From IMG/VR virus record IMGVR_UViG_2825807022_000004: 64,000 nt of DNA, one strand, 5' to 3'. Under the pieces are notes generated by a model that did no database searches, was not told where the DNA came from, and saw only the letters and a program-made list of their open reading frames with translations. Source of the stretch: a virus. A program made the position numbers and the translations under genes. How positions within the stretch are numbered: the stretch's first letter is position 1; each line of letters starts with the position of its first letter. This document shows positions 955 through 61,501 of the stretch, piece after piece.

Positions 955-1211
955 CTCATCATGTAGACCTCGCAGGCCTTGTAGTCGGTGAAAGCCATCT
1001 TTTTAATGGCTTCACGCGGTACATTAGACACCAGAGAAATTAATAATCCCATTGCACTGAGTGCACCTGATTTGGCCTGTTCATCATAAAACTGCTGAAC
1101 CTGAAGCAGTACCGGTTCGCTCAGTTCAATCGCTTCATAGGTGGTTTTCATGGCTTCGTGGCCGATCGGTTTAACGAGGGTAATTGTTTTCGTGCGTTCT
1201 AATTCAGACAT
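909..1211 (-). CDS. Tail assembly chaperone, allele A
   Basis: 100 aa ORF between tube and TMP carrying the slippery site. Confidence 0.85.
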   Translation of the reverse strand: MSELERTKTITLVKPIGHEAMKTTYEAIELSEPVLLQVQQFYDEQAKSGALSAMGLLISLVSNVPREAIKKMAFTDYKACEVYMMSFLAYSPQPESGVTS

Positions 1212-1212
1212 A

Positions 1213-1581
1213 TTAATTCTCCGTGACCGAGCCGCCTTCCCAGCGAATATCCGCCGTCGCTTCCGTACTGTCCACTTCCTGCGTATTCACCGACCACATG
1301 CCGCTGCCGATAATGGTTTTACCGTTCGCCAGTTCACAGATGATGCTGACGTTGGTCTGTTCGTTAAAATCACTGATTGAGGTTCCGCCACTATCGCGGA
1401 TCTGGCAGGAAATAAATGGGGCGCTGAAGGTTTCTTTATAACCGTGTACCCCATCCATGCCGGTTAACGTCTCACGCTTGACCCGTGACGGGCTGTATTT
1501 AAACTGCCCCGCCACCATGATGGTCAGTCCGTCTACCGTGACAAAGGCGGTACCGGCCAGACGGTTTCTTGTATCACCCAT
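1213..1581 (-). CDS. Tail tube protein (Mu gpM-like)
   Basis: 122 aa directly after sheath; sequence type and position. Confidence 0.85.
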   Translation of the reverse strand: MGDTRNRLAGTAFVTVDGLTIMVAGQFKYSPSRVKRETLTGMDGVHGYKETFSAPFISCQIRDSGGTSISDFNEQTNVSIICELANGKTIIGSGMWSVNTQEVDSTEATADIRWEGGSVTEN

Positions 1582-1593
1582 AAAATCGATCCC

Positions 1594-3084
1594 TTATGCT
1601 GACGCCTGCAGGCGGAATTGGTTAAGAACAGCAAAAATACGTAACTGATTAATCAGAACGCCCGTCCACAGCACATCGACCCGATTGGGGTTGCTGGCGC
1701 TCTTTTCGACAATCAACCCTTTGGCAAAACCTTTCGCATCCTGCACATAACCGCTAAATTCCAGCGCCTGATACTGGGCAATCAACTCTGCGCGGATCAC
1801 GTTGGGCGTGATAATGGCTGATCCGGGGGCGAAACGGGTACCGTCAGCAGCGAGTTTCATACGGGCAAATTTCGAGGTCACTTGAGTTCGCATATAGCGA
1901 GTAATAAACATCAGCAAAAACAGCGTTTCAATCTGCAAATAGCTGTCATCCTCTGCGCCAAATCCGTTTTTCTGGTAGGTGGTAATGATATTCTCCACTT
2001 GCACCGTACCGTCATCGGCCACCGTGACCGTGGATATGCCGCTGTGCAGCAGGTTATTACGCTCGGTCAGAGTAAAGCGGCTGGCCAGCGGCGGAGCCAG
2101 CACACCGGCGATACTCAGCGTTTGCAACGGACGCCCCGGATCGTTACGCAAACTTTGTGCAATCGCGCCGACATAAGCCGCTGACCAGATGTAACTTGGT
2201 GTTGGCGAGCCATTCACCCCCAATAGGGAAGCATGCTGATCGTTACGTAATTCCCCAGCCGCCGTCAGTTGGCCGTAAGTGCCCGATTGGGCGGCAAAGC
2301 TGTGACCATACAACTGTTCGGCGTAACTCCAACGACCGGTACTGTCCGATAAAAAGTCTTTGAGTTTATTCAGAGACGCTGTATCAGTGTACGGATTGAT
2401 GATGAAATCAAAGGTGCGATCCTGCAAATTAGCCAGGGCATCATCCAGTTCCGGCGCACCGGCGCCGCCCGACATCGGGGTGATCGTCAGTGCCAGACTG
2501 TCCGGCGTGTTTTCCCCACCGGCACTGCCCAGATAGTTCAGGCGCACATCAATCGCGTTGCCGTGAGCACCTTTATTTTTGGCGGTTAAGGTAATCACCC
2601 CCGCCGCCGCCGTCGCTATCACGGGTAAAGCCGTGGCCGCATTAATTGCTGTGGTCAACGCCGTGGCAATGGTGGCAACGTCATCAGTGGCCACCACCGC
2701 AATCTGCACCCGAATACCGGCGATATACAGTGAAATCGCGCCCGTAGCCGATGCCGGAGTGGTCACCGTGATTTTACCGGTTGCCGCCACCATCGCTTCT
2801 GCATCGCTCAAGGGTAAGATATAAATCTCACCGGCAATATCATTCGCCAGATACGCGGCCATTTGCCCCTGCAACATCGAACCCGCACCGCATAACCCGG
2901 CCACGGTGGCCACAGAAGAAACCAGTACCGGTACATTAGGTGGAAGTGTGGCCGCTGCCAGCATTTGCCCGATAATTAAGGTGCGCTGCGTAGTGGTTGC
3001 CGAGTTTGCCTGCGAATTATCGAACTCGGCGAAGAAAAGCGGCGTCCGCAGGTTGTTCGGAATATGGCTAAAAGGAAGGGTCAT
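1594..3084 (-). CDS. Tail sheath protein (Mu gpL-like)
   Basis: 496 aa; IPNNLRTPLFFAEFDNSQA N-terminus and NPNRVDVL C-terminus typical of Mu-type sheaths. Confidence 0.92.
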   Translation of the reverse strand: MTLPFSHIPNNLRTPLFFAEFDNSQANSATTTQRTLIIGQMLAAATLPPNVPVLVSSVATVAGLCGAGSMLQGQMAAYLANDIAGEIYILPLSDAEAMVAATGKITVTTPASATGAISLYIAGIRVQIAVVATDDVATIATALTTAINAATALPVIATAAAGVITLTAKNKGAHGNAIDVRLNYLGSAGGENTPDSLALTITPMSGGAGAPELDDALANLQDRTFDFIINPYTDTASLNKLKDFLSDSTGRWSYAEQLYGHSFAAQSGTYGQLTAAGELRNDQHASLLGVNGSPTPSYIWSAAYVGAIAQSLRNDPGRPLQTLSIAGVLAPPLASRFTLTERNNLLHSGISTVTVADDGTVQVENIITTYQKNGFGAEDDSYLQIETLFLLMFITRYMRTQVTSKFARMKLAADGTRFAPGSAIITPNVIRAELIAQYQALEFSGYVQDAKGFAKGLIVEKSASNPNRVDVLWTGVLINQLRIFAVLNQFRLQASA

Positions 3085-3275
3085 TATGGTTTTTTCTCCA
3101 CTTGAGTGGCTTCAGGTGCGGGTTTCACTTTCGGCTCTGGAACGCACACCACGTCACCGTCATTTAATCGGCGACGCCAAAAAGAATTGTCGGGAACCTC
3201 TGCGCCAGTTTCAGGCAAAAAGGTGCCCTTCACCGGATCGCGTACTGAGCGACCGGTTACGGGTTGTACAATCAT
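3084..3275 (-). CDS. DUF2635 / Mu gp38-like small tail protein
   Basis: 63 aa with VRDP and FWRRRLNDGDV immediately upstream of sheath. Confidence 0.75.
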   Translation of the reverse strand: MIVQPVTGRSVRDPVKGTFLPETGAEVPDNSFWRRRLNDGDVVCVPEPKVKPAPEATQVEKKP

Positions 3276-3625
3276 GGAATTGACTCCTAAAGGTTGATAG
3301 CTACCAGCGGTTCTGGTGCGCCATCGGGCATGGCAATAGTGACGTCAATACCCGCCAGCGGCTCGGCATCGATAGGATAGAAATCTTCCGGGCCTTGGTA
3401 ATATTCAATATCCAATTCCATCAGCAGTTGAGCCATATGCCCTTCGCCCGAGGAATCAATATCAATCGTGGAGCGTACTCGCGCGAATTGCTGAATTTTC
3501 CGCGTCAGTTCATAGCTATTAATCACCGCCCGCTCGACCTGATCGCGCAACCGCTCTAAGTGAATAGACCCGGGTTTCGTAGACACTTTTTTGCCTCATA
3601 ATGGAGGCCTAATGAAGGAGTGTTT

Positions 3626-3904
3626 ATGTCAGTCAAAACGTTCACTGAAGAATTCAAAATTGAAGCTGTAAAACAGATTAACGAGCAGGGATACCCTGTT
3701 TCTGAGGTTGCGGCACGACTTGGTGTTTCCACCAATAGCCTTTACGCATGGATCAAGCGTTACCAAAAACCCGAACCACAGCGCAAGCAGGACGATGCCC
3801 TCCAGCACGAAGTAAAGCGCCTCAGGCAAGAACTTAAGCGGGTGACTGAAGAGCGAGATATTTTAAAAAAGGCCGCCGCGTACTTTGCAAGAACGTCAGG
3901 CTGA
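3626..3904 (+). CDS. IS3 transposase OrfA (HTH)
   Basis: FTEEFKIEAVK...VAARLGVSTNSLYAW; A6G frameshift motif at 3865-3871. Confidence 0.9.
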   Translation: MSVKTFTEEFKIEAVKQINEQGYPVSEVAARLGVSTNSLYAWIKRYQKPEPQRKQDDALQHEVKRLRQELKRVTEERDILKKAAAYFARTSG

Positions 3905-3924
3905 AGTACGCCTTCATTAAAAAA

Positions 3925-4776
3925 ATGTCGACCTTTTATGCGGTACGCCGGTTGTGTCTGGTTCTTGGCCTCCATTACAGCGGTTATTACCAGTGGCTAA
4001 AACGGCCTCAATCTCTGCGCGCCAGGCAAGATGAGCGCCAAACAGGCCTCATTAAACAACTGTGGCTTGAAAGTGGTACGGTTTATGGTTATCGAAAAAT
4101 CTGGCTCGACATGAAAGACTTGGGTGAGCGAGCTGGGCGTAACAGGATCGCGCGCCTAATGAGGCTTGCAGAGTTGGCTTCTCAAACCGGATATCGGAAA
4201 CGCCGCTATTACGGCGGCGGAAAAACATCAGTTGCCAACCCTAATTACCTTGAACGCCAGTTCATTGTTCCTACCCCCAATACGCATTGGGTGAGTGACA
4301 TGACCTATATCAGAACGCATGAGGGATGGTTGTATCTGGCCGTTGTTCTCGATCTTTTCTCGCGTCGGGTTATCGGCTGGAGTATGGGGGGGCGAATGAC
4401 AGCAGAGCTGGTGATGGACGCCTTGTTGATGGCAGTGTGGCGACGTAAACCAACGGCAAAAGTACTAATCCATTCGGATCAGGGCTCGCAATATACGAGC
4501 GAAAGATGTCAGCATTTTATGACCGCTCACAATTTAAAAAGCAGCATGAGTCGCCGAGGTAATTGCCATGATAACGCGGTGGCTGAAAGCTTTTTTCAGT
4601 TGCTAAAACGAGAACGCATAAAGAAACGGATCTATAAAAATAGAGAAGAAGCGAAGGCGGATATCTTCGATTATGTAGAGATGTTTTATAATGCTAAACG
4701 GCGTCACAGTGCCTGTGAAGATCAACCACCTGCAGTTTATGAAAGTGCCTGGTTCATGAGGCACGCAACCGTCTAG
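3925..4776 (+). CDS. IS3 transposase OrfB (DDE), probably translated as OrfAB by -1 frameshift
   Basis: WVSDMTY, HSDQGSQY and DNAVAESFF motifs. Confidence 0.93.
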   Translation: MSTFYAVRRLCLVLGLHYSGYYQWLKRPQSLRARQDERQTGLIKQLWLESGTVYGYRKIWLDMKDLGERAGRNRIARLMRLAELASQTGYRKRRYYGGGKTSVANPNYLERQFIVPTPNTHWVSDMTYIRTHEGWLYLAVVLDLFSRRVIGWSMGGRMTAELVMDALLMAVWRRKPTAKVLIHSDQGSQYTSERCQHFMTAHNLKSSMSRRGNCHDNAVAESFFQLLKRERIKKRIYKNREEAKADIFDYVEMFYNAKRRHSACEDQPPAVYESAWFMRHATV

Positions 4777-5059
4777 GAAACTGGGGTCTATTCAAAGGCC
4801 AGCTCCGCTTTTACCGCGCCATCATCGGCGAGTTCACTGTCAAACTCTTGCAGGCGACCAGTGATACGAACGGTAGTGATGGTATTGAACTGCGGGGCGT
4901 TACGACCCAGTGACTGTTTTTCCTCAATCAAGGTTTGGATCAGCAGTACCGGATACATCTCTTCGGTGGTTGGCCAGTCACGCGGAGAATAAACACGGTG
5001 ATCTGCGTCGGTATTCCCCTGTAGAGCCGCCACCACCCGTTCTCTTACCTGAGCTGTAT

Positions 5060-5407
5060 TCATGTTTTTTTGACCTGATTAAGAATCAGTTTACTGCCAC
5101 CGTGACTATCGGGCTGAACGTCCGACACGGTGAACAGCGTATTGATGGTCACGCCACCGGCCACAGCAATAAATACCCGGTCACCCTGTTTAGGCAGCGA
5201 ACGAAATTCACTGTCTCTTACGCCTAAAACCGGCTTAGTGGTATTGATGGTGCTGCCATCGTCGAGCGGTTCAATATCCTGCGTATACGCCCGGTCAAAG
5301 ATACCGCTGACGGTGTAAGCGGCGCCACCCGCAGGCCGGTATTCAACCGGATCGCCAAATACCGAATGCAATGGCGCAAGAAGATGCTGATCCCAGTGGA
5401 TGCCCAT
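5060..5407 (-). CDS. Head-tail joining protein (lambda FII-like)
   Basis: 115 aa; position after capsid genes. Confidence 0.6.
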   Translation of the reverse strand: MGIHWDQHLLAPLHSVFGDPVEYRPAGGAAYTVSGIFDRAYTQDIEPLDDGSTINTTKPVLGVRDSEFRSLPKQGDRVFIAVAGGVTINTLFTVSDVQPDSHGGSKLILNQVKKT

Positions 5408-5410
5408 ACG

Positions 5411-5782
5411 CTAGCCTTCCTGAGTGACGATAACGCCATTGTTAACCTGAATCATCGGCGCACCGGCTGCTTCGCGGGCAGCGGCTTGCTTTCTCAAAGC
5501 ATCCAACGTAATGACAAAACCTGCATCAATCAGAGTGACCACATCGTCAAGATCATCGAGAACCAAGGTATTGCTTTCGAGATAGAGCTTGTCGTTATGC
5601 TTCACTGAACGCCCCTTAAGCACCACAACCGTGGTGCTGAGAGAGTCCGTGTCACCGGGGAATGCCTGATCTTCTCCATCAGGTGTTTCTAACTGAGTGT
5701 CAGTCCCTTCTAACTGTTCCGCAGGGATAGTTTTCTCTATCTCTACCCCTGACTCATCCGGGATCTCTTTTTGCTTCGCCAT
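5411..5782 (-). CDS. Hypothetical virion-region protein (likely start MAKQKE)
   Basis: ORF directly after major capsid gene; present in both copies. Confidence 0.6.
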   Translation of the reverse strand: MAKQKEIPDESGVEIEKTIPAEQLEGTDTQLETPDGEDQAFPGDTDSLSTTVVVLKGRSVKHNDKLYLESNTLVLDDLDDVVTLIDAGFVITLDALRKQAAAREAAGAPMIQVNNGVIVTQEG

Positions 5783-5783
5783 C

Positions 5784-6830
5784 TCACACCACCTTTGCGC
5801 ACAGAGTGGCATTGACCCGGCTTGGAATCACCAGCGGGGAAGATTGCATCAGCAGGAAACGTTGAGCCGGATCTTCCTGAAGCCAGCTTTTCGGCGCATA
5901 GGCCATGGGACCATAGTTGAAGGCCGGATCGAGAATAGCGGCAAAGCTGCGCGTTCCCATCAAATCGGCACCGGACATAATGACCAAGCCATCAGCCAGC
6001 ATCGGTTTTTCAACCCCATCAACCGGGTCAATGTACCAATCGTTATAGAGCCACAAATCAAACTGACCCCAACGGCCTTTATACACCGCGCCTTTGCCCA
6101 CGCGCGCACCGGCATCAATCTGATTGCCAAACGGGCTTAATGCCGGGAAGACGATGGCGTTGTCTTTGATGGTGGTATCCAGTCGGAACGCGCGCCATGA
6201 CGAGGTGGTAAACACCAGGTCGGTCACGACTGCACCAGAGTCTTTCAGTACCTGAGTCTGCCACAACTCAATATCTTGCGAAGGCTTGTCGTTGGTTGCC
6301 CCTGCCGCAACCACCATCGGCCATTTGTCACTACCACTGAGGGCGACGGTTAACGCGGCAGAACGACCAAAATCAATCACGGTGGTGTCAAAACCTTCAC
6401 CGGTGACGGTGATGGTACCGGACGCCAGCGCATTGGCGGCCATCCACTCCAGTCGGCGGTTGACCATATCGATCTGATCGGCCATTTCGAATTGCAGATT
6501 TAGCATTTCACGCTCGGCGGCGGTGTACTCGCCACCAATCCGCTCACCAATCTGGCGACGGATTGGCTTACGCAGATCAGGTGCGCGCTTATCTTTGATG
6601 TACGGCGGTTTAAAGGTATTGGTTTGCAGACGGCGACTTTCTACCAGCTTGCCCTGCACCAGCGGCGAAACGAACGGAGCCATACGACGCTGCCCTACAT
6701 CCACATCGATGGACACAAACTCGGTATCAGAGGTCACCACGTTGGGAAAGAATCGGTCGAGTAAGAAATTTTGTGAGGTTTTCAGGTTGGGGACGGTCTG
6801 CACCAACACATTGGTATCAAAAATATTCAT
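5784..6830 (-). CDS. Major capsid protein, lambda gpE family
   Basis: 348 aa; FLLDRFF, RRMAPFVSP and FLLMQSSPL motifs; follows decoration gene. Confidence 0.9.
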   Translation of the reverse strand: MNIFDTNVLVQTVPNLKTSQNFLLDRFFPNVVTSDTEFVSIDVDVGQRRMAPFVSPLVQGKLVESRRLQTNTFKPPYIKDKRAPDLRKPIRRQIGERIGGEYTAAEREMLNLQFEMADQIDMVNRRLEWMAANALASGTITVTGEGFDTTVIDFGRSAALTVALSGSDKWPMVVAAGATNDKPSQDIELWQTQVLKDSGAVVTDLVFTTSSWRAFRLDTTIKDNAIVFPALSPFGNQIDAGARVGKGAVYKGRWGQFDLWLYNDWYIDPVDGVEKPMLADGLVIMSGADLMGTRSFAAILDPAFNYGPMAYAPKSWLQEDPAQRFLLMQSSPLVIPSRVNATLCAKVV

Positions 6831-6934
6831 GAAATCTCTCTATAAAATAGCCCGACAACCTGCGCTGCCGGACGGAATGAAGGCGTGCAACGCCCTACCA
6901 AAGAAATGGCATCAGTCAATACAGACAAACAGAG

Positions 6935-7333
6935 TTAGGTATTAGACGCGGTCAGGCTGCTACGGAGGAAAATAGAATACGGACGAAGAGCCACAGCAAG
7001 ATCGGCCAGCGTCCAGCTGTCATCAAAAATAACCCGATGTTGATTAAACTCGCCCATCAGATAAACCCCAGCCTGAACTGCACCAGTCGTGGCATCGGCG
7101 TCATCAACCAAAATAGCGCAAGGTACTTGACTGCCATCCGTCGCCGTTTTAACCGATTGGATATAGGCTTTAGTCGTCGTGATTTGCCCCAAAACCGTAC
7201 CCCGTCGCAGAACACCCGCAGAAAGGCTGACGGTATCGGTGACCAGTTGCAGCGGCCCACTGACCAGTTGATCCGGAACAAAAACCGCCTGAGTGACGCC
7301 GGGAGTAAAACTATTCTGTCCTATCTCATTCAT
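6935..7333 (-). CDS. Head decoration protein (gpD-like)
   Basis: 132 aa; LRRGTVLG, DGSQVPCAIL, GEFN. Confidence 0.8.
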   Translation of the reverse strand: MNEIGQNSFTPGVTQAVFVPDQLVSGPLQLVTDTVSLSAGVLRRGTVLGQITTTKAYIQSVKTATDGSQVPCAILVDDADATTGAVQAGVYLMGEFNQHRVIFDDSWTLADLAVALRPYSIFLRSSLTASNT

Positions 7334-7956
7334 GATTTTTTACCTACCGTTTGGTTATACAAACCCGTCATTTTACTGACCAGCGCCTGAGCCGAGCCGC
7401 TTGGGGCATCGGCCGCATCCTGACCCACTTGCACATTACCCAACGCCTGCATCCGCTCATCCAGAGAACGCTTGCGAGGGGTTGATGCTGCGGGGGTCGC
7501 CGCTGAAGTTGAGGCCAGCACGCGAATAACTGCGGCAGAACTCATGCCGGAGTTCAACGCCAGTGAAGCGGCTAAATCCACGCGACCCGCTGCATGTTTG
7601 CTGCCAAAAATCCTTGCACAGCGCTTACGCTCAGCCCGACGACCCTTTTTAACATTGCGGTCTTCGTCTTCATCATCGCCGTCATCGTCTTCCCCCTCAT
7701 CCGCATCGGCGTCATCGCTGTCGTCTTCTGCATCAGGGTCTTTTTCATCCTGATCGTCATCATCGCTTTCAGCGCGACGCCCCTTGGCTTTTTTGCCGTT
7801 TTTTTCCTCGTCTTCGTTATCGTCCTGATCCTCATCATCTTCAGCATGACGGCCTTTAGCCTTCTTCGACTTTTCCTTATCCTTATCCTCTTCATTTTCT
7901 TCAGATGCCTTGGCACCACGGCCAAACAGGTGAGAAAAACCTTTAATTTTCGCCAT
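7330..7956 (-). CDS. Probable capsid scaffolding protein, highly charged low-complexity N-half
   Basis: Between protease and decoration genes; D/E- and K-rich with repeated KKAKGRxAE. Confidence 0.6.
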   Translation of the reverse strand: MAKIKGFSHLFGRGAKASEENEEDKDKEKSKKAKGRHAEDDEDQDDNEDEEKNGKKAKGRRAESDDDDQDEKDPDAEDDSDDADADEGEDDDGDDEDEDRNVKKGRRAERKRCARIFGSKHAAGRVDLAASLALNSGMSSAAVIRVLASTSAATPAASTPRKRSLDERMQALGNVQVGQDAADAPSGSAQALVSKMTGLYNQTVGKKS

Positions 7957-8813
7957 TACTCTTCTCCAACTTGGTTTAATAAAGCCCGGAATGCGGTATC
8001 CGGTGCGGCCACTTCATCAGCCAGCCCCAGTTGCACGCCGTCAGCGGCCAACAAGCAGGCCGCCTGAGTATCCCGAATGATTTTTTCTGCTATCCCGCGA
8101 TTGCGGGCAACGGTACTGACAAATAAGCGCCCCATTTCATCAACATCAGACTGGATGGACTGCTGTGCCTCTTCACTTAACGGGGTGTAAGGGTTAGATT
8201 CAGCCTTGCGATCGCCGTAGGTAATGATGGTCACCTGTAGGCCATCGGCTTTGATACGCTGCGACCAATCCACATGCATCACAATCACCCCCACCGACCC
8301 CACGCCACCGGTTCGCGGTACCACAATCCGGTCGGCGGCACTCGCCAGCGCGTAAGCCGCCGAATAGGCATTCTCTGACAAGATGGCCCAGATCGGCTTT
8401 TGCCCACGAGAAGCATAAATTTCATCAACCAGATCAAAACATCCGGCCACCTCACCGCCGGGCGAATCAATATCCAGGCAAATACCCTTGACGGTTTTGT
8501 CATACAGCGCCCGGAGAAAACAGGCGCGGATGCCGTCATAGCCCGTCATGCCACTGTAGGGGCGCAAACTCCCCAGTTTCTGCACCAAGGTGCCCTGAAT
8601 AGGAATGATGGCAATCCCCTCAACGACGTCATAGCCGGTATCCCGGCCTTTGCGGGTAAAAACTTCATCATCGTCGTCACCCCAGTCAGTACTGGACTGA
8701 ATGCGGGTCAGGCCGAATCTGTCGGTCAGCGCGGCCATCACCACTTCCGCTTTGCGCGGATGTAGCGCCAGCGGGGTATTGAACAGCCGCTGAGCCAAGT
8801 GCGGTAAATTCAC
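7956..8813 (-). CDS. Prohead protease, S49 family (lambda gpC-like)
   Basis: LDIDSPGG, AYSAAY, GSVGV motifs. Confidence 0.9.
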   Translation of the reverse strand: MNLPHLAQRLFNTPLALHPRKAEVVMAALTDRFGLTRIQSSTDWGDDDDEVFTRKGRDTGYDVVEGIAIIPIQGTLVQKLGSLRPYSGMTGYDGIRACFLRALYDKTVKGICLDIDSPGGEVAGCFDLVDEIYASRGQKPIWAILSENAYSAAYALASAADRIVVPRTGGVGSVGVIVMHVDWSQRIKADGLQVTIITYGDRKAESNPYTPLSEEAQQSIQSDVDEMGRLFVSTVARNRGIAEKIIRDTQAACLLAADGVQLGLADEVAAPDTAFRALLNQVGEE

Positions 8814-10707: not shown

Positions 10708-10715
10708 AGAAATCC

Positions 10716-13255: not shown

Positions 13256-13317
13256 CTGTTACCTCGTTGTTACCTGTTACCCAAATTTCAAAAGTTCATA
13301 GCTAGACGCAGAACGCG

Positions 13318-13359: not shown

Positions 13360-13379
13360 AAAAAATTCTGAGGAGAACA

Positions 13380-48544: not shown

Positions 48545-48648
48545 GAAATCTCTCTATAAAATAGCCCGACAACCTGCGCTGCCGGACGGAATGAAGGCGT
48601 GCAACGCCCTACCAAAGAAATGGCATCAGTCAATACAGACAAACAGAG

Positions 48649-52421: not shown

Positions 52422-52429
52422 AGAAATCC

Positions 52430-54409
52430 TTATGCCAGCCGTCTGGCAATGCGTTTAGGTGAAGGAGGATCTGATTCTTTGATAATGGCTCCGGGCAGGC
52501 GCAGACTGTTTTTTTCTTCGACCTCAACTGGCGGCGGTAACAACCGCTCGGGGTGAGTCAGAATTTTGTCTGCGGTTTGATTGAGTTTGAAACCCAAATG
52601 CAGCAAACCACATAAAGCCGCGTAGCTATAGACCCGGCAATCCAGCGCCTCATTAGCCCGACCCGGTAGTTGCTCCCAGACCCGATAACGTTGCCCACCT
52701 GAAATTTTGACTACCGAACGCTCCGCCAGTAATTGGCTGAAATAATGCAGATCCCGATCGGCTGGAAAGTGCATGCAGCCCGCCGATTCGCTACCCGGTG
52801 CCGGGAGATCAATATGCAGACGAGAGCGAATGGCATCTTTAGCCGCATTAACGCCTAAAATAATCGGCCTGAACTGGGATTTTGAACGGGACGAAGGCTT
52901 TTTAGTCGGCCAGACCGGAGAGCGTTTCCCCCCACGCGCGGATTCCCCTTTTATCGCCCAAATACGCCGACCAAGCCGCTCTTTGGCAAACTCGTACACC
53001 TTCTGGGTATGGTGACCACCGGAATCCATGCAAGCGGCCATAATGGTAAAACCTCTGCCATCAGCTCGCCGCCAGATTTGTTTCAGATAGGCATCCAGCC
53101 GCAACCAAGGCTCGTCAGTTTGCAAATCCCCCTCAATGACATCAAAAGCAACTGACCAGCTTTCTTCATTTTTGCCCCACCCCGTCACCTCAATTTCAAA
53201 GCGGTCATCTTGCGTATCAATACCGGCGGTTAATACCGCCACACCATCCGGCACTTCTGCGGCGAAGAGTTCACAGCGTTCAATCAGTTTCTTTTCGCTC
53301 AGGGCTTTCTCGCCGCGATCTTCATAAGGTTCACCCAAGACCAGGTTGATAAAGGTCTGGCGCATTAAAGCGTCATCTTTTACCCGCAACCATTCAGCCA
53401 CCAGATATTTCCAAGCAGCATTAGGGAACAGGCTGTATCCCGCCCAGATATGAAAACCGGCATGACCTTTAAATGTTTTTGTTGCCTGCCACTTCCCGCG
53501 TTTTACCATCCCAGCCTTTTCGTTGTGATGAATGACACAACCATTGTGACGGCAGACATAGTAAGCCGTGTCTGGCAAGCCCACCCCGTCCGCATCTTTA
53601 TCCCACTTGATGCCGTAAGGCGTATCTGGCCCACCCCATTCCAGCGTTTGATATTCGCCGCACTGCGGACAAGGAACGTAATACTTCCGCTGGTCGCTCT
53701 CATCGTAGGCTTTTTCAATTCGGCTGATCCCTTTAACCGTGGGCGTCGAACCCAGCACTATTTTGCGGTTCCAGAAGGTTTCAGAACGTTTGGTACCCAG
53801 CGCTATTTGGTCGCCATCCACCCCAGCACCGGAAACAGGGTAGCCATCCACCTCATCGAACAAAATGATGCGACAGGTAATACGCCGGAAACCGCCAGGG
53901 CTATTAGCGCCTACCAGGGTCAGATTCGAACCGTTGAGAAATTGTTTTTTCAGGATAGTTTGATTGCTGTTTTTGGCTTTCAGATCGCCCGAGATCGCCT
54001 TTAAGGCCGGAGTATCGCGCAGCATCGGGGTAATTTCGGTTTTACTGTAATCCTCGGCATCTTCGACCCGAGGCTGAACCACCAGAATTGGCGAGGGGTC
54101 ATGTGCCAGATAATAGCCAATCACATGGTCGAGAATTTTGGTGTAGCCGACGCGGGCTGATTTCATCACCGAAACCTGTGTAACACGGGGATCGGTAATC
54201 GCATCCATCATGCCATCCTGATAGGCAAATGAACGGAAGCGACCGGTTTGCGCACTGGTTTCCTTCGACAAAACCGCATACTTATTGGCCCACTCGCTCA
54301 ATGACAACGGCTCGGGCGGTTTGATATTGCTTCTTCGTTGATACAGCTCTTTGGTGAAATTATCCCAGGCCGATAAATTAGCTGTCCCCTCGGGTGTTAT
54401 CGGTATCAA
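52430..54409 (-). CDS. Terminase large subunit, lambda gpA family (intact)
   Basis: 659 aa; MKSARVGYT, FDEVD, GSTP, CPQCGEYQ, GIDTQ, NEALDC. Confidence 0.95.
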   Translation of the reverse strand: MIPITPEGTANLSAWDNFTKELYQRRSNIKPPEPLSLSEWANKYAVLSKETSAQTGRFRSFAYQDGMMDAITDPRVTQVSVMKSARVGYTKILDHVIGYYLAHDPSPILVVQPRVEDAEDYSKTEITPMLRDTPALKAISGDLKAKNSNQTILKKQFLNGSNLTLVGANSPGGFRRITCRIILFDEVDGYPVSGAGVDGDQIALGTKRSETFWNRKIVLGSTPTVKGISRIEKAYDESDQRKYYVPCPQCGEYQTLEWGGPDTPYGIKWDKDADGVGLPDTAYYVCRHNGCVIHHNEKAGMVKRGKWQATKTFKGHAGFHIWAGYSLFPNAAWKYLVAEWLRVKDDALMRQTFINLVLGEPYEDRGEKALSEKKLIERCELFAAEVPDGVAVLTAGIDTQDDRFEIEVTGWGKNEESWSVAFDVIEGDLQTDEPWLRLDAYLKQIWRRADGRGFTIMAACMDSGGHHTQKVYEFAKERLGRRIWAIKGESARGGKRSPVWPTKKPSSRSKSQFRPIILGVNAAKDAIRSRLHIDLPAPGSESAGCMHFPADRDLHYFSQLLAERSVVKISGGQRYRVWEQLPGRANEALDCRVYSYAALCGLLHLGFKLNQTADKILTHPERLLPPPVEVEEKNSLRLPGAIIKESDPPSPKRIARRLA

Positions 54410-54977
54410 GGCTTAATTCCTCCATTGCCTCATAAACCACTTCTTGCAGTGCTGTCACAAACTCCGCGTCGTCGGTGGTTGAGGCCAGAACCCGCAAGCG
54501 GGGACCCTGTTCTGGAGCGATAGCAATCAACCGGGTTCGCATACGGGAATACTCTTGCCCTACCGCCTCGGTCATTTCTTTATAGGGGAGTACCTGCCCG
54601 GATTTGATCTCGTACTCAAGCCTGGTAAGCAGCGCCAGAAAGTTTTCTTTCATTTCGCGGGCTTCATCGATGGTCATATCGACGCCGTTCTCGGCAATCA
54701 TCTTCTCGACAATTTTGGCTGGTGACTCCGCCGGATCGCCGTCGGATTTGTTACCCAGTCTGTTACCCTTGCGGTTGTTACCCGGTTTGTTACCTTGCAT
54801 GTTACCTGCGGCTTTTTTCTCTGGTCGGGTAACAGTTTTGCGAAAGCGCTCAATGTTAGCGTTTGAAGCCTCAACATCGATGTCATCACCGGCCAGAACC
54901 AGCCACCCGCGCGCCTTCCACGTCGTTACCGTTTTGCGGCTGACATCGTGAAGTTTGGCAAAATCTGACTGATTCAT
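54378..54977 (-). CDS. Terminase small subunit (intact) with GN repeats
   Basis: N-terminal wHTH (FAKLHDVSRKTVTTWK); overlaps terL start. Confidence 0.88.
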   Translation of the reverse strand: MNQSDFAKLHDVSRKTVTTWKARGWLVLAGDDIDVEASNANIERFRKTVTRPEKKAAGNMQGNKPGNNRKGNRLGNKSDGDPAESPAKIVEKMIAENGVDMTIDEAREMKENFLALLTRLEYEIKSGQVLPYKEMTEAVGQEYSRMRTRLIAIAPEQGPRLRVLASTTDDAEFVTALQEVVYEAMEELSLDTDNTRGDS

Positions 54978-55039
54978 CTGTTACCTCGTTGTTACCTGTT
55001 ACCCAAATTTCAAAAGTTCATAGCTAGACGCAGAACGCG

Positions 55040-55081
55040 GCGCGCAATGCCCGTGCAGTAAATAAGTCGTGGGAAGGACCC
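55040..55081 (-). promoter_or_regulatory. Putative cos site, copy B
   Basis: Same sequence as 13318-13359. Confidence 0.65.
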
Positions 55082-55102
55082 AAAAAATTCTGAGGAGGAA
55101 CA

Positions 55103-55750
55103 CTATCGCTTGGCGGTGGCCAGCGCATTCTGAATGGCCTTGGTCAACTCTCCCGGCATCAGTGCCGCTGCCATGATGCTAGCGCGATCCCTATATCCCA
55201 GCGTTGGTTTGACCGTCAGCGCATCCCCAAAGCGGATCAGCAGCTTAGGCGCACGTTGTTTCACTCTCGGCCTGTGGGTGCCATTGGCCGATCGCTTCTG
55301 GCGCTTCTTATTCTTTTTACCCTTGCTGACTTTCTTCCGCTGCCATACGCCATTAACGCCATCCACATCACCTACAAAGACATTATCTTTAGCCTTGAGC
55401 TGGCTCATCTTGTTGCGAGTGAGGTTGCCGTATTTATTCAGCTTAAGGTTCTTAGGGTTCAGCAACGCCTTGCCATTCAGTTTATGTACCCCGCCGAACT
55501 CGAATGGCTCCAGATAGCCAGCAGCGATATCACGCACAAATACTTTGGCCTGCAAGCGATCTTTACGGGCACCGAAGAAGCCAACAGAATTAACGGTGAA
55601 AGGGGTCGGATTATCCAAATTGCGCTGCATACCCACTTTCTGAGCATCGGCAATCTGGCGAGCAACACTGGTTAGGGCTTGGGCAGCGGCGAATGGGAGC
55701 TGCTTTTTAATCTGCTGGAGCTGATTAGACAAATCCTTTAACGTTGCCAT
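55103..55750 (-). CDS. Basic gpZ-like protein (intact)
   Basis: QLPFAAAQALTSVARQI resembles the lambda gpZ N-terminal helix; K/R-rich. Confidence 0.65.
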   Translation of the reverse strand: MATLKDLSNQLQQIKKQLPFAAAQALTSVARQIADAQKVGMQRNLDNPTPFTVNSVGFFGARKDRLQAKVFVRDIAAGYLEPFEFGGVHKLNGKALLNPKNLKLNKYGNLTRNKMSQLKAKDNVFVGDVDGVNGVWQRKKVSKGKKNKKRQKRSANGTHRPRVKQRAPKLLIRFGDALTVKPTLGYRDRASIMAAALMPGELTKAIQNALATAKR

Positions 55751-55841
55751 GACTCACCCTTAAATAGAAAAGCCACCAGCTTATGAGGCCAGTGGCTTAG
55801 AAATATAAGATCCGTCGTAAAAGGCTTAAATTTTTTTTGAC

Positions 55842-56060
55842 TTAAATTTCCATAGCTCTCTGAATTGCATCAGCTAATGAGCCAATATTCTCTGCCGTAT
55901 CAGTCAAATCCACACCAACTCGAGCACCATTTGCAGCATCTGATGAACCTGCACTGGCCTTCGCAATCTCAAGAGCTGCTTGCATAGCCAATAGGCGCTT
56001 ACGGTTAGTCGCAACGGATTTCCCTGTCTCCCCGTCTAAATCATAGTAACCATCTAACAT
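55842..56060 (-). CDS. Hypothetical 72-aa protein
   Basis: Identical to 14117..14335. Confidence 0.75.
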   Translation of the reverse strand: MLDGYYDLDGETGKSVATNRKRLLAMQAALEIAKASAGSSDAANGARVGVDLTDTAENIGSLADAIQRAMEI

Positions 56061-56239
56061 AATATTTCTCCTTGATTAATAAAGCTAATACGTTAGCAGG
56101 AATAATCATTAGAAGCAGTGTATACGATCAACATCTTCAATAATGCCAAAGGAAAACTATAGACTTTGCAGTTATGCTGTGAGATTCAGATACAAAAAAG
56201 CCGCCATTCTTATGGCGGCCTTAAGATGTCAATGCGAGC

Positions 56240-56797
56240 TTAGACGTAAACAACTTCCCTAACCTGCTGGTCAGGAAGCAACATAATTGCTTCTTCTAAA
56301 GCGGGACTTCTGAGTTGACCAAAAATCCCTGTCGCCGTTTTAACTACCTTTACAAGGAATAGCACAGATAGTGCGACAGGTAGAGTATAGATAAGAAACA
56401 TCAAATTATTGAAAATCATAGTCTTTTCAAGAATAAAACCAGACTCCATCATGATATCAATAACATTTTTATTCTTACAGTCCTTTAACTGTTGAACTTC
56501 TCTTTTTATCCGAGCTTGTATAGCTGGATTGCTTTGCATCCTTCGCTGAGCACGAACCTTGTTAGGCAGTGTCATCAGATGTAAACGGTTTATCGCATTG
56601 TTTAAACCATCATGAACCAACTGCGCTGGAGCTAAATCAGCACCAAGATCACCTTTAATGATCACTTTTCTAATTTTGTCGCGTAATGCGAACAATTGAT
56701 TTCTGTAACTTAATCTGATTGACGGAAGAATTATTTTTTCATAAATGAAATGTACTACGGCCAGAATACACAGCACATAAAACAGTGTTGTGAGCAT
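56240..56797 (-). CDS. Moron membrane protein, 185 aa
   Basis: Identical to 14515..15072. Confidence 0.8.
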   Translation of the reverse strand: MLTTLFYVLCILAVVHFIYEKIILPSIRLSYRNQLFALRDKIRKVIIKGDLGADLAPAQLVHDGLNNAINRLHLMTLPNKVRAQRRMQSNPAIQARIKREVQQLKDCKNKNVIDIMMESGFILEKTMIFNNLMFLIYTLPVALSVLFLVKVVKTATGIFGQLRSPALEEAIMLLPDQQVREVVYV

Positions 56798-56840
56798 AAA
56801 GCCTCCTTATCCTTCTTCTAAATCAAACATCATCTACTTG

Positions 56841-57218
56841 TTACTTATCGCTTGTTCCAAGTTCTTGCGATGTTTGATTTTGTTGGATCTCTGTTTTCTC
56901 TCTGCCGATACGCTGGGCTTCTTGGCTAAAGCATTTACGCATAACACCAGCATGCCATGACCAAGCACCGAGGATAATAGCAGCACATACCCATCCGATG
57001 AGTGCGTGCAAGATGAAACCATCTATAACATCATGAGCAATTTTTGACAACTCATCTTCAGGAAGCCGAAATGCTGCAATCATGAGTATAATACTAATAG
57101 TTATTGGTACTAATTGACCTGATGCCATAGCCTTTAACATCACGTCTCGCCAAGCATGTGCCCAGGTAACCCCTTGCTTGCCCTTGTTACCCTTCCCTGC
57201 CGGCGACTGCTTCCCCAT
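56841..57218 (-). CDS. Moron membrane protein, 125 aa
   Basis: Identical to 15116..15493. Confidence 0.75.
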   Translation of the reverse strand: MGKQSPAGKGNKGKQGVTWAHAWRDVMLKAMASGQLVPITISIILMIAAFRLPEDELSKIAHDVIDGFILHALIGWVCAAIILGAWSWHAGVMRKCFSQEAQRIGREKTEIQQNQTSQELGTSDK

Positions 57219-57377
57219 GTACCAATACCATCATATGCTGTGAATGGGCAAGCATGTTACTCTTAGTTACTCTTTTCGTCAAAAATATAAGTATCGTTTA
57301 ATAGTTATATATCTGAAGACACTTCTTACTAAACTCAGTTTGATAACTATAGTCTCTTTTTTAAACATTTATCCACT

Positions 57378-57683
57378 TTATAATCTCCTCTCAGCGTCCC
57401 GCCGCCACTTAATCACCTCATCCAGCCGCCCCTTACAGATCCGCAGCTCACGCTTAAGGGCTAGCGCATAAAGCCCGCTATCACCCCAAGTAGTACCGAC
57501 GAACTCCGGTACCTCACATTCAGTTAATGCCGATTCTGGCGGGAGCAGTATCTGGCACTCTGTAATGGGTACTGGTGGCCTATTCCCGCAGGAGACTAAC
57601 AACATCGTCAGGCAACTGGCTGTCAGCACATAAATCGCCTGCCGCCGCAGCCTGAAACCGCTTAAGCCGTGCGTCACTCTCAT
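57378..57683 (-). CDS. o-spanin
   Basis: Identical to copy A. Confidence 0.75.
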   Translation of the reverse strand: MRVTHGLSGFRLRRQAIYVLTASCLTMLLVSCGNRPPVPITECQILLPPESALTECEVPEFVGTTWGDSGLYALALKRELRICKGRLDEVIKWRRDAERRL

Positions 57684-57924
57684 TACGTAATTTCCTCTCG
57701 TTATCTAACTGGCGGGCGGTGGCGGCTCGGTTGGCGGCATCGTTGGCACTGTATCCATCGATGATGTTACCGAGTGCTGTGTTAGTGGCCAGCTCCGCTT
57801 TCAAGGTGACTTCCTGTTTTTCAACCTGATTTGAGAGGCGGTAACTGTTGAATGCCAGTGCTAATACCAATCCTGACAGTGCAACTACTCCAACAAAGCG
57901 CCAGTGACTGAATATCCAGGTCAT
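57580..57924 (-). CDS. i-spanin
   Basis: Identical to copy A. Confidence 0.8.
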   Translation of the reverse strand: MTWIFSHWRFVGVVALSGLVLALAFNSYRLSNQVEKQEVTLKAELATNTALGNIIDGYSANDAANRAATARQLDNERKLRNESDARLKRFQAAAAGDLCADSQLPDDVVSLLRE

Positions 57925-58544
57925 AGCAATGCTCGTCGGGCAGTTTCAAACCGCGCCTTGCGGTCATCAATACCGTTATAGCCACCGTTGATCAGCAACG
58001 TCACGCGCTGAATATCGTCAGCATATTGACCACAATTGCGGGACTGCCAGAACCAGGCAGCAGAACGCGCAGCATGCATATCAAGCTGCAGCTGATCGGG
58101 ATTACCGACCAAATCCAGCTTGAGTGCGGTACCGCACAGGCGATAATTATCTAACCCGGTAACCTGAATCAGCCCGCGACCGCGATATTTCCAACCATCT
58201 GCCGAGCCTTTATTCCCCATCCGGCCGGAATACACCAGATTGGCAATAGCCTGCTGACGATTAAGCGGTACTGACGTTTCACCACGCTGACGACCTAGCG
58301 CCGAAGCCTGACCAGCTGATAACCGCTTGCCGAACGTAGCAATCAAACCGTTAACGCTGTAGTTGAACGACTCCACCAGCAGCGTGAAACTGGCTGACTC
58401 ATGCCCCACCTGCGCAATAAACATGGCTTGCTGTTCTGGGGCGGTTATGCCGAATTCTGTCATTGCCTCGGTAACAGGCTGAATCCAACGCGCAGCAAAT
58501 TCGGCGCTGATATTAGCCGCCATTCTGAATTGATAAGGGGTCAT
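57921..58544 (-). CDS. GH19 endolysin
   Basis: Identical to copy A. Confidence 0.92.
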   Translation of the reverse strand: MTPYQFRMAANISAEFAARWIQPVTEAMTEFGITAPEQQAMFIAQVGHESASFTLLVESFNYSVNGLIATFGKRLSAGQASALGRQRGETSVPLNRQQAIANLVYSGRMGNKGSADGWKYRGRGLIQVTGLDNYRLCGTALKLDLVGNPDQLQLDMHAARSAAWFWQSRNCGQYADDIQRVTLLINGGYNGIDDRKARFETARRALL

Positions 58545-58547
58545 GGT

Positions 58548-58898
58548 TTATACCTGAGGTTTAGTATCGTTACCGCCGCCAATGCGGTTGCCAACAAAAC
58601 GGAGCGCCAAAGCGCGAATTTGCTCAACACCGATAAAGCCAATTAGCCCACCAACGGCCAGTGTGAGTTGCTGCGGTAAATCGAAGTATTCCAACGCACT
58701 GACAGCAGTAAGCGTTAATGCCCCGCAAGTCAGCCCCTCCAGAAAGGTTTTCTTCCATCCACCGCCGGTATAGGCCACGCGTAATGCCGCCATCACTACC
58801 GACAACAGGACACCACCGAGCGGAACATCACCTCGCCACCAGGCATTAAACAGTTCTATCCAGTCTGCCCATGTATGCAATTCGTTATGCATCTTCAT
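58548..58898 (-). CDS. Holin with dual start
   Basis: Identical to copy A. Confidence 0.88.
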   Translation of the reverse strand: MKMHNELHTWADWIELFNAWWRGDVPLGGVLLSVVMAALRVAYTGGGWKKTFLEGLTCGALTLTAVSALEYFDLPQQLTLAVGGLIGFIGVEQIRALALRFVGNRIGGGNDTKPQV

Positions 58899-59337
58899 AA
58901 CCACCTCCCCAATGGGGAATATTATTCCCGGCATTGTCGGGTGTTGTTTTGAGGAATTTAGCCCACCAGCGCAGCCACTCATGCGGAGTAATGTGTGTGG
59001 AGTTGATTGGGTGGCTGGTGGGCTAAAACGAAAAAGGTCACGCAATAGCGCAGCCTCATAATTATTTACCTGCTGTTTTATCCACCGCAGACGATGGTGG
59101 TATCTTGATTAGCGACGCCGGTTAGATGATGCCAGCAATACTGCGCCGTTTTTGATGGCTGCTGCCAGAGCTTCCGCAAGAATTTCATGCGGAATACCTG
59201 GCAAACGTGCAGACCAAAAGGCCCGAGTTCTCACCCAATCCATATCTCCGGCCAGTTGAGAAGTGATGGCTTGGCGAAGCTCTTTTATTAAAGCGGCTTT
59301 TTCCTCTTCTTTTTTGTATAAGGATGCGTCCATATTT

Positions 59338-59781
59338 ATGTCCAATATTGATAAGTTTAATGAGTTCGCAGGTCGGGTATTCGGAATACTCTATGAGGAG
59401 TTTCCCATTCCGACCAACATCAATGTAGGTGATATCCTTGGTGATCCGGATTTATACAACACCACAGGTATTCCGCCCGAAATGGCGGATGACGCTGATA
59501 TAGCCGGGTACACCGTTGTCTGGTTACGCCAATCTGGTTACCTTGATATGCTTAATCAAGATATAAGCCTAAATGAATTTTATAACGTGGTTCTAACAGC
59601 AAAGGGGTTGGAGGTACTCAAAGCAATACCTGATAGCTTAACCCCTCGCTCATCCCCGCTTGGAACACAAATCGCAGATGCGGTTAAATCAGGTGCAAAA
59701 GAAACGGTAAGTTCCTTGGTTAACCAAGCACTATCAACTGGCATAAAGTTAGCTGCAAGCTCAGTTGGCATTGATATCTAA
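59338..59781 (+). CDS. Hypothetical wHTH-like protein
   Basis: Identical to 17613..18056. Confidence 0.7.
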
Positions 59782-59939
59782 CGCACAAAAAAAACAAATA
59801 ATTAAGCCCCGACACCAGTCAGGACTTTTCGTTTTTGACGCCGGTTACGGTTCCGGCGTCAACACCTACCAATGTGCTGACCGCATACCTTAAAAATGCA
59901 AAAGGCCCACCGAAGTGAGCCTTAAGCTTGATTACTGAA

Positions 59940-60059
59940 TTATTTAGCAAATTTCTCAGCTTCTTCGCGAGTAGTGATGAAGCTTTCGCCAAGGCCAATC
60001 GCAATCAATATTCCTACGATATAGCCCGCCAGCTTACTGTTTAAAATCTTCTTGAACAT
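59940..60059 (-). CDS. 39-aa single-TM peptide
   Basis: Identical to 18215..18334. Confidence 0.65.
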   Translation of the reverse strand: MFKKILNSKLAGYIVGILIAIGLGESFITTREEAEKFAK

Positions 60060-60260
60060 AAAACCTCCAATTTAGAGGAGTAATCATTCTATGCCCTTTT
60101 AATCATTTGTAAAATGTCGTGTATTCACCACATTCGTCTGGATACTGTTTCACAACGATTGGGTTAGCCAATCCAGTACCCATGCGAATATAGAAATGCA
60201 AAAAGCCCACTCGACGGTGGGCTATGGTAAGTGCTGAATGCAAAAACAGCAGCATATGTG

Positions 60261-60292
60261 ATAATAGTGGCTCATTGGCTCAATAATGTCAA
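60261..60292 (-). promoter_or_regulatory. Late promoter pR'
   Basis: Identical to copy A. Confidence 0.75.
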
Positions 60293-60298
60293 CACGTT

Positions 60299-60787
60299 CT
60301 ATGCAACTTTCTTTATTTTACCGACACGTTTGCGGCTAATGAAAGCATGTTGCATTGGTTGATATAACATCCATACCGCCGCAGCCAATATTTCATCCAC
60401 TTCACGACGACACGTTGTCAGTGACGGTTTTTTCATCCGATCCCCACCTCGTGTTGACATCTTGCGGGGTTTTGCAGTCGCGAAGTAGTACGATGCAATT
60501 GATCGTTTGGAAGCACCATGAGAGTAATAACTAATCAGCATCCCCAAGGCTTTTGTATCAATGTGCATAACGGAATCTACGACCTGAGAAATCAACATTC
60601 CGTCATCGTCATTGCACATCGGCCTTGATGGGCTTCCCTGCGGTTCTACTGTCGCCATGTACTGCGCTATAACGCTGCTCATGCGCTTCTCTAATCTTCC
60701 TGAGTAAACCCATGCGCCCCACAGTTCAAGCCAGCCATTAATCCAGTCATGCTGCTCTTTGGTTAGTTTTAACTGAGTTACATTCAC
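60299..60787 (-). CDS. Q: Antiterminator Q (phage 21-type)
   Basis: Identical to copy A. Confidence 0.93.
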   Translation of the reverse strand: MNVTQLKLTKEQHDWINGWLELWGAWVYSGRLEKRMSSVIAQYMATVEPQGSPSRPMCNDDDGMLISQVVDSVMHIDTKALGMLISYYSHGASKRSIASYYFATAKPRKMSTRGGDRMKKPSLTTCRREVDEILAAAVWMLYQPMQHAFISRKRVGKIKKVA

Positions 60788-61392
60788 GCTGCCTCCTGAG
60801 TTTCTTTAAGCCGCTTCAATTCCAGCCGGTAGTAATCACGAATGCCCTTTAACTCTTCAATGCTGTAACTGCTGCGTTCGTGGTTGTTTTCGATAGCCTC
60901 CACTGTCTCAATTCCAATGCGCTTAATCAGCTCGACGCGGTACGGAACGATATTCCCGCTCTTGTGCTGATTGCATACTGAACATTGTTTATGGATTTGC
61001 CGGGGGTCGAATCTGAATTGAGGTGCTGCTGCGGTTGTTCTGTAGTGTCCAGCATCCCACTGTGCCGCTGAATGGGTACCACATGATACGCAGGGTAGGA
61101 TTGAATCACGTGCTCTTACAAAGGCGTTGACGGCTTGCTGTGCCTGCTTAATCCAATACGTTTTGGGCTGGGCATTAATTCTTCTGACTTTTAGCTGCTT
61201 CCGATCCTCCTTTTCTTTCTCCCGCCTTCGCTGCTCTGCTTTCTTCAGTGCATCTTGGTGGGCATTTTGCGCTAGCTGCTTTATGTATTCCTCTTTGTGT
61301 TCCTCGTTGCACCACCACTCATAAATCCTTTCCGGCTTGAATCTCGTTTTGCATACTTTGCAGTTACGATGGCTCGGTAGCTTGTTTATCAT
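60784..61392 (-). CDS. ninG: NinG/Rap endonuclease
   Basis: Identical to copy A. Confidence 0.9.
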   Translation of the reverse strand: MINKLPSHRNCKVCKTRFKPERIYEWWCNEEHKEEYIKQLAQNAHQDALKKAEQRRREKEKEDRKQLKVRRINAQPKTYWIKQAQQAVNAFVRARDSILPCVSCGTHSAAQWDAGHYRTTAAAPQFRFDPRQIHKQCSVCNQHKSGNIVPYRVELIKRIGIETVEAIENNHERSSYSIEELKGIRDYYRLELKRLKETQEAA

Positions 61393-61501
61393 CGGCTTCC
61401 TCCTTCGCTGCTTTATCAATGCATTTCTGATGAGCGTAGGTTTCACCCTTGTTAAGCATCAAGAAGCAATACACGCATACGGATTGCGGTAACTGAGTCA
61501 T
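61364..61501 (-). CDS. NinF-like small protein
   Basis: MTQLPQSVCVYC...; C-half identical to copy A. Confidence 0.55.
   Translation of the reverse strand: MTQLPQSVCVYCFLMLNKGETYAHQKCIDKAAKEEADDKQATEPS

Follow-up and report, generated by a model that had tools for sequence, protein, structure and literature searches.

Tandem integration of phages that share one attachment site (att) in the bacterial chromosome (attB) has been called the traditional view (PMC8112680). Natural tandem prophages have been found in some but not all closely related strains of Mycobacterium abscessus, and their origin, either through the integrase (Int) or through homologous recombination, has been discussed (PMC9934374). 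Using heteroimmune dilysogens of the form attL-imm21-cos-attP-imm434-cos-attR, Feiss and co-workers have shown that the "passive prophage" between the two cos sites can be packaged in situ in recA- cells, with a yield of 1-4 virions per cell (PMC4669245). The DNA analyzed in this study is a stretch of 64,000 nucleotides (hereafter the window; IMG/VR record IMGVR_UViG_2825807022_000004), which is part of the Yersinia ruckeri QMA0440 chromosome (GenBank CP017236.1, record positions 2638913-2702912). With a probability of about 0.85, this locus is a Campbell-type tandem dilysogen, in which two heteroimmune phages with lambda-type heads and Mu-type tails, prophages A and B, lie head to tail in one attB, Int-mediated entry being most likely. 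QMA0440 is a Tasmanian Atlantic-salmon isolate; HGAP3 and Quiver were used to assemble its genome from PacBio RSII P4 reads (PMC5320707). The loci of CP017236.1 were found through exact-protein look-ups and overlap the window exactly (L014 1-11581, equal to window 11581-1; L021, equal to window 61125-64000). The map was extended on the left (8.8 kb) and on the right (17.4 kb), to about 90 kb in total. Coordinates follow the numbering of the window throughout, with negative values to its left and values above 64000 to its right.

The order along the chromosome is nadD, attL, prophage A (42.9 kb), attP, prophage B (43.1 kb), attR, and rsfS. A 23-bp core, GGGGAACCTTTGCAAGGTAAAGC, occurs exactly three times in the 90 kb, in direct orientation, at -8452, 34481, and 77581. 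At attL, 8.45 kb to the left of the window, host DNA downstream of nadD is joined to the core and a P' (tail-side) arm. At the middle junction, the core is flanked by a P (int-side) arm and a P' arm, and host DNA is absent. This junction has the same left arm as attR and the same right arm as attL. At attR, the int-side arm and the core are followed by the rsfS frame (TTG CAA GGT AAA GCG ..., encoding MQGKALQEF...), and the core overlaps the ribosome-binding site and the TTG start codon of this gene. In the nearest related genome (G001), a single empty attB was found, whose core (226816-226838) joins the nadD-side and the rsfS-coding host arms. These BOP'-POP'-POB' junctions, with three copies of one core, bear out the claim of a tandem dilysogen made in an earlier reading of the window from its letters (hereafter the sequence-only reading). 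That reading had also suggested comparing the outer att cores and the integrase of B with the 34.48-kb junction; all of them match, which supports Int-mediated tandem insertion. For Yersinia, these results define an attB at which phages integrate over the start codon of rsfS. As regards the host genes, integration leaves rsfS intact and replaces everything upstream of it by the int-side arm of the phage, and at attL the initial five codons of rsfS run into a short reading frame of phage origin.

The two prophages share their integration functions and differ in immunity. The 358-amino-acid (aa) integrase, with the domains Arm-DNA-bind_1 and Phage_integrase, is 100% identical between A and B, and the excisionase Xis is 98.8% identical, with one residue different. 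The cI repressors of A and B, each with a Peptidase_S24 domain, have no significant similarity to each other; a comparison of the two Cro proteins gave no hit; and the cII proteins are 90% identical. Since the integrase is the same and cI and Cro are unrelated, A and B are heteroimmune phages with one integration specificity. The resident phage would therefore not repress a newcomer, and both use one site.

Both prophages are lambdoid mosaics. Their head and packaging genes encode TerS, a gpA-family TerL, gpW, portal, S49 protease, D, and E, with matches to PF05876, PF20454, PF05136, PF02831, PF01343, PF02924, and PF03864 in Pfam as well as matches to PHROG families. The tails are of the Mu-type contractile kind, with sheath, tube, a tape measure carrying an SLT domain, a Gp45-48-like baseplate, fibre, and chaperone. 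Holin, endolysin, spanins, Q, NinG, and NinB are present in both, and the left operon of each ends with Dam, xis, and the 358-aa lambda-type integrase. The early region of A contains O- and P-like replication genes, cII, cro, a 225-aa cI (helix-turn-helix and S24), Erf, and SSB. The early region of B contains a DnaB-type helicase and continues beyond the window with cII, cro, a 221-aa cI with S24, an N-like gene, cIII, RecT, YqaJ, Dam, xis, int, and attR, after which rsfS follows at about 77.6 kb. The products of the tail, head, and terminase genes of B are equal in length to those of five other Y. ruckeri genomes.

Comparison of the window with itself by BLAST gave three co-linear direct blocks with offsets of 41.2-42.9 kb: 1-3560 matches 42949-46511 at 95.4%, 4792-19743 matches 46506-61468 at 99.89% (3 mismatches and 12 gap openings), and 20281-20902 matches 61498-62129 at 92.7%. 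On these alignments, the direct repeat cannot be due to chance. The sequence-only reading had put its length at about 18.6 kb, which was recovered in these blocks, and the repeat is longer once the flanks are added. In the extended sequence, the distal tail genes of A (-8452 to -349) match those of B (34481-42584) over 8.1 kb at 99.86%, and the 2.4-kb Dam-xis-int block at 32054-34503 is repeated at 75154-77603 at 99.6%. The content assigned to the space between the copies was likewise found, namely the early genes of A, xis, int, a gene-free junction of 260 bp, and then the tail, head, and terminase genes of B. In a base-by-base comparison, the late regions diverge over about 1.6 kb at the tape-measure/chaperone genes (-500 to 1112). 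The sheath gene has 13 single-nucleotide polymorphisms (SNPs) and the 8-kb distal tail has 2; besides indels, 1 SNP (at 5711) lies in the 14.9-kb tract from the head genes to ninG. Differences found in A only are a 1234-bp insertion and a cluster of 12 small indels, and the early genes of A and B are distinct over 13.7 kb. The spanin, endolysin, and holin region of the window (15676-17317) is 94-99% shared with another prophage in sister isolates (17-kb contigs, runs X1 and X4), and short-read contigs of A end there because of this shared region.

Each prophage carries the same 12-nucleotide sequence, GGCGCGCAATGC, which agrees at 12/12 positions with the annotated cosL end of Serratia phage vB_SspM_BZS1; the surrounding alignment of 229 bp has 91% identity. 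Both copies of this cosN are 61 bp upstream of terS in the same orientation, 41,722 bp apart as deposited (unit lengths of 42.9 and 43.1 kb), and the TerL proteins of A and B belong to the lambda gpA family. Lambda terminase begins at cos and proceeds towards terS. The interval from cos to cos holds the complete virion genes of B, attP, and the int, xis, early region, Q, lysis genes, and cos of A. The sequence-only reading was thus right in describing the middle unit as a complete phage genome, in which the immunity, replication, and int/xis genes of A are combined with attP and with the intact virion genes of B and cos. It had also called for one crossover to loop out a circle of about 41.7 kb, and this part did not hold. 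The middle unit is an exact cos-to-cos interval, and therefore no crossover is needed; lambda terminase packages such an interval in situ in recA- cells (PMC4669245).

By analogy with the lambda dilysogens, production of a hybrid phage is predicted at this locus. Upon SOS induction, both S24-type repressors would be cleaved, and the identical Q proteins would switch on both late operons, so that either prophage could activate both. Terminase would start at the cos of B (55050), proceed leftward through the virion genes of B, attP, and the int and early genes of A, and end at the cos of A (13317). The expected product is a self-sufficient 41.7-kb phage with the immunity of A and the intact particle genes of B, made without excision or recombination. 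The other three combinations of A and B would come from Int/Xis excision and from RecA crossovers in the 2.4-, 8.1-, and 15-kb repeats. Furthermore, Int/Xis could excise A, B, or an 86-kb dimer, and RecA could delete one unit through the repeats. Self-sufficiency would be expected only for genomes that carry the intact 179-aa gene of B.

In A, an IS3-family insertion sequence (IS) with the ends TGAATAGACCC.../...GGGTCTATTCA splits the 179-aa gene just upstream of the DUF2635 and sheath genes. The 3-bp target AAG is duplicated in A and single in B. The identical insertion is present in Illumina contigs of sister isolates and is absent from B and from run X5. This insertion is the sole real lesion of prophage A. 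A Pfam search with the 179-aa protein found nothing, and a single-sequence AlphaFold model of it (mean predicted local distance difference test score, or pLDDT, of 41) was not used. We tentatively propose, at somewhat less than even odds, that an IS-crippled resident prophage can be re-mobilised here without recombination: a heteroimmune relative at attR would supply virion genes and a second cos in register, and induction would package the repaired phage. If this holds and is frequent, tandem insertion would offer defective prophages a general way back into the pool of free phages. The locus, together with sister strains that carry A alone, is a natural test substrate for the frequency with which new phage genotypes arise from cos-to-cos packaging outside E. 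coli K-12.

Features of the tandem array in the window
Feature	Position	Strand	Remark
A proximal tail: tape-measure start, chaperone, tube, sheath, DUF2635, distal remnant of 179-aa gene	1..3560	-	Gene order as in B; equal to L014 of CP017236
IS3-family insertion sequence, 1234 bp, in the A 179-aa gene	3561..4794	+	HTH_Tnp_1 orfA and rve orfB, TGA...TCA inverted ends, AAG duplication
A head/packaging: connector genes, capsid E, decoration D, S49 protease, portal, gpW, TerL, TerS	4795..13316	-	Near identity to annotated B copies
Cluster of 12 one- or two-base indels in copy A, zero substitutions	11414..14007	.	Judged a PacBio/Quiver consensus artefact
cosN of A, 12-nucleotide GGCGCGCAATGC on + strand, expected termination site of middle unit	13317..13328	-	Exact match to annotated BZS1 cosL
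A 215-aa gene, two-gene moron, spanins, endolysin, holin, Q antiterminator, NinG	13329..19743	-	B copies annotated; inside 99.9% repeat
A-specific early genes: NinB, P-like loader, O-like initiator, cII, cro, cI, Erf, SSB	19744..32053	.	100% shared with sister isolates, there adjoining rsfS
A Dam methylase, 80-aa open reading frame (ORF), excisionase, lambda-type tyrosine integrase (358 aa)	32054..34480	+	Repeated at right end of B
Middle att core GGGGAACCTTTGCAAGGTAAAGC, P-core-P' attP with flanks	34481..34503	+	23-mer also at attL (-8452) and attR (77581)
B distal tail: fibre assembly, tail fibre, Mu Gp48/47/46/45-like baseplate, hub proteins, 154-aa ORF, SLT tape measure	34504..43739	-	Product lengths as in other genomes
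B chaperone, tube, sheath, intact 179-aa gene, connector, capsid, decoration, protease, portal, gpW, TerL (659 aa), TerS (199 aa)	43860..54977	-	No gaps against Illumina contig L027
cosN of B, expected initiation site of middle unit, terS immediately downstream on minus strand	55039..55050	-	Identical to A cosN
B 215-aa gene, morons, lysis cassette, Q, NinG	55051..61468	-	Second copy of 99.9% repeat
B-specific early start: NinB, DUF551, DnaB-type helicase	61469..64000	-	Continues outside window

Draft genomes of the same study provide information on the history of the array. In about 20 of them, the early region of A is directly followed by rsfS (L023, with 18 similar places, and L025). A 29-kb Illumina contig of sister isolates matches window 1-3586 without differences, up to the same IS junction, and sister-isolate contigs lead from the opposite end of the IS into the head genes. 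The int arm of A is identical to that of the sister isolates at 10 of the 10 positions where A and B differ, and the int arm of B is that of another prophage adjoining rsfS (L022). These comparisons identify A as the resident prophage of the Tasmanian lineage and B as a later addition, probably a recent one, at the attR of A, between the int of A and rsfS. Entry of B by Int-mediated recombination between attP and attR is most likely. Two routes had been proposed in the sequence-only reading. Int-mediated insertion at one attB agrees with the matching att cores and Int, and integration through late-gene homology is excluded, because crossovers there would put B on the left or link the IS-bearing tail of A to the early genes of B.

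Modules related to those of B were also found in other combinations. In three Y. ruckeri loci (L015, L017, and L018), the immunity/replication module of B (221-aa cI, cro, cII, DnaB helicase, and NinB) is joined to a quite different late module with a 274-aa Antiterm Q, Terminase_6N, and a Mu F-like head, and the switch lies between ninB and ninG, the point at which the homology between A and B stops. In another locus (L022), the left operon of B is joined to a third immunity region. Judging from these joins, the modules of B circulate separately in the Y. ruckeri population. The nearest related genome has a late region about 95% identical to that of B (G001:C1:733517-748069), with a prophage at another site and an integrase (717187-718227) that is 37-43% identical; the same virion module therefore travels with different integration modules. 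Relatives of this phage (L010-L012, locus positions about 18550-20369) contain extra inverted tail-fibre and fibre-assembly genes past the first set. These genes suggest an invertible host-range segment, for which there is no counterpart in A and B.

The tandem reading has several points against it. Knowledge of the array comes from a single PacBio assembly. The authors of that assembly report little or no Illumina cover across a 45-kb prophage region and describe their long-range polymerase chain reaction (PCR) tiles of 7-12 kb as "gap closing" (PMC5320707). The published amplicons fit a chromosomal POP' junction and a circular excised B alike. No indexed public run contains both the early region of A and the B-specific region at full share, although the QMA0440 reads may not be indexed and no conclusion on absence is drawn; and the P-core-P' 48-mer has no exact match in species-representative genomes or IMG/VR, limited collections that say nothing on rarity. 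The match of the 179-aa protein to Mu Gp37/tail-terminator-like clusters in an Atlas feature search (0.94) is a lead only. On a rival reading, only one prophage is integrated in most cells, and the other is an excised or replicating circle or belongs to a sub-population and was threaded in by HGAP through the 2.4-, 8-, and 15-kb repeats, and the unpolished indel cluster would fit few uniquely placed reads in the middle of the 15-kb repeat. We consider such an artefact improbable, as the copies are not duplicates but differ in the 13.7 kb of early genes, the tape-measure cassette, and the IS. The decisive links, from the early genes of A through int to POP' and from those of B through int to rsfS, need reads over only 2.45 kb, and the SNPs within this 2.45-kb block are phased as in independent Illumina contigs. 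A is chromosomal in at least 20 sister isolates, and low Illumina cover is to be expected where reads map to two places. A published 11.1-kb long-range PCR pair maps at 32877 (int region) and 43966 (B-specific chaperone allele) and spans the junction; of the 16 published primers, 4 were unmapped within 2 mismatches, and 21568F disagrees with its partner, probably through a typo. If the early region of B is joined to rsfS and A stays between nadD and rsfS, a tandem is the only possible order. If the array is real, B might still have entered by homologous recombination with the resident prophage, of the RecA type or through a phage recombinase, rather than by Int. Long near-identical tracts are common to A and B, both phages carry recombinases (Erf in A; RecT and YqaJ in B), and the same ambiguity is discussed for the M. 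abscessus tandem prophages (PMC9934374). The last difference between A and B before the core is at 33133, and a crossover in 33134-34480 gives the same product as Int; this leaves a target of only about 1.35-1.37 kb, as a crossover in the 8.1-kb tail or the 15-kb head-to-Q repeat would give unobserved linkages. Given also the perfect core and a predicted functional Int, identical in both phages, the homologous route is unlikely.

The indel cluster in copy A bears on how far this prophage has decayed. In the deposited sequence, the indels split TerL into three or four ORFs and also break TerS and the 215-aa gene (CP017236 about 2650326-2652919). The sequence-only reading took them as lesions that limit a useful crossover to 14.0-19.7 kb, and they do stand in a deposited, PCR-checked reference sequence; the numbering of the gap-closing PCRs starts at window 11309. 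If all 12 frameshifts were real, A would truly be decaying and could be rescued only by crossovers to their right. This is highly improbable, since 12 indels and no substitutions fall in 2.6 kb of a 14.9-kb tract with one SNP, most of them shorten base runs, and they occur only at a distance of more than 5.7 kb from either unique anchor, namely the IS junction on one side and the beginning of the early region on the other. Such a cluster would be expected where few reads can be placed uniquely for polishing. Moreover, an Illumina contig found in at least 20 samples (L027), which starts inside the IS and carries the A SNP at 5711, has 0 mismatches and 12 gaps against A and 0 gaps against B. Run X5 is corrected at 11 of the 12 sites, its contig ending before the twelfth. 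It is therefore very probable that the PacBio consensus is in error where TerL, TerS, and the 215-aa gene are frameshifted, which leaves the IS as the only real lesion. For the reference genome of this important pathogen of salmonids, it would follow that 12 frameshifts are errors of polishing and that prophage A is less degraded than annotated. A deletion of 5337-15341 in sister isolates, considered because of zero depth in runs X1, X4, and X25, was rejected, as contig L027 spans the region next to the IS in at least 20 samples; the gap in depth is put down to filtering. Another view of the locus is that the array is a selected, dedicated device that shuffles immunity/replication modules against tail alleles and thus a new kind of system. 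Modules do reassort in the population, as in the B module with another late module and the left operon of B with a third immunity region, but such mosaicism is general among lambdoid phages, and the locus contains no more than a pair of ordinary phage genomes plus one IS. None of the sister isolates examined has the array, and the tandem state is not conserved in other lineages here. Furthermore, direct repeats of 15, 8, and 2.4 kb should make it unstable rather than maintained, and a dedicated device is scarcely credible.

The locus is a textbook tandem double lysogen as in lambda, and it is a new instance with respect to the host, the attB over the rsfS start, and the phages, which combine lambda heads with Mu tails. 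Its description as an undescribed system could not be upheld, as tandem prophages at a shared attB are known (PMC8112680, PMC9934374). Compared to the heteroimmune dilysogens of lambda (PMC4669245), the Y. ruckeri array has the same general plan: two lambdoid prophages that share att/int specificity but not immunity lie head to tail, a complete attP stands between them, and the cos-to-cos middle unit is a packageable hybrid with the downstream immunity, as predicted here. Unlike those dilysogens, the Y. ruckeri array is natural rather than constructed, its attB lies over the rsfS start and not between gal and bio, its phages have Mu-type contractile tails, and packaging is inferred from sequence.

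The prophages prophiT36-2a/2b of M. abscessus (PMC9934374) and the tandem ompW prophages of E. coli O157 (PMC8112680) are similar to the Y. ruckeri pair in that two different prophages share an att core, that they are present in some close strains and absent in others, and that an origin from attP and attR/attL or from homology is discussed. Unlike the Y. ruckeri pair, the mycobacterial pair has integration-dependent immunity and different integrases. With identical integrases and a near-identical late region in the Y. ruckeri pair, cos-to-cos hybrids and RecA loop-outs are far likelier than in the mycobacterial pair.

Two further systems can be compared with the middle unit. Davis and Waldor reportedly described, in 2000, hybrid virions from adjacent CTXphi/RS1 prophages in Vibrio cholerae. 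As in these arrays, the virion genome predicted here is made of parts of two neighbouring tandem prophages. Unlike the phages of the Y. ruckeri array, CTXphi is filamentous, and its hybrid arises via rolling-circle replication from the chromosome and XerCD sites, not via terminase at two cos sites. In work attributed to De Paepe et al. in 2014, and in lambda-Rac hybrids, genes of defective prophages are said to be rescued by recombination with related phages. Similarly, a related phage could restore the complete set of particle genes to the IS-interrupted prophage A. Unlike in that rescue, recombination would not be strictly needed in Y. ruckeri, where the two genomes are linked beforehand and in the proper order.

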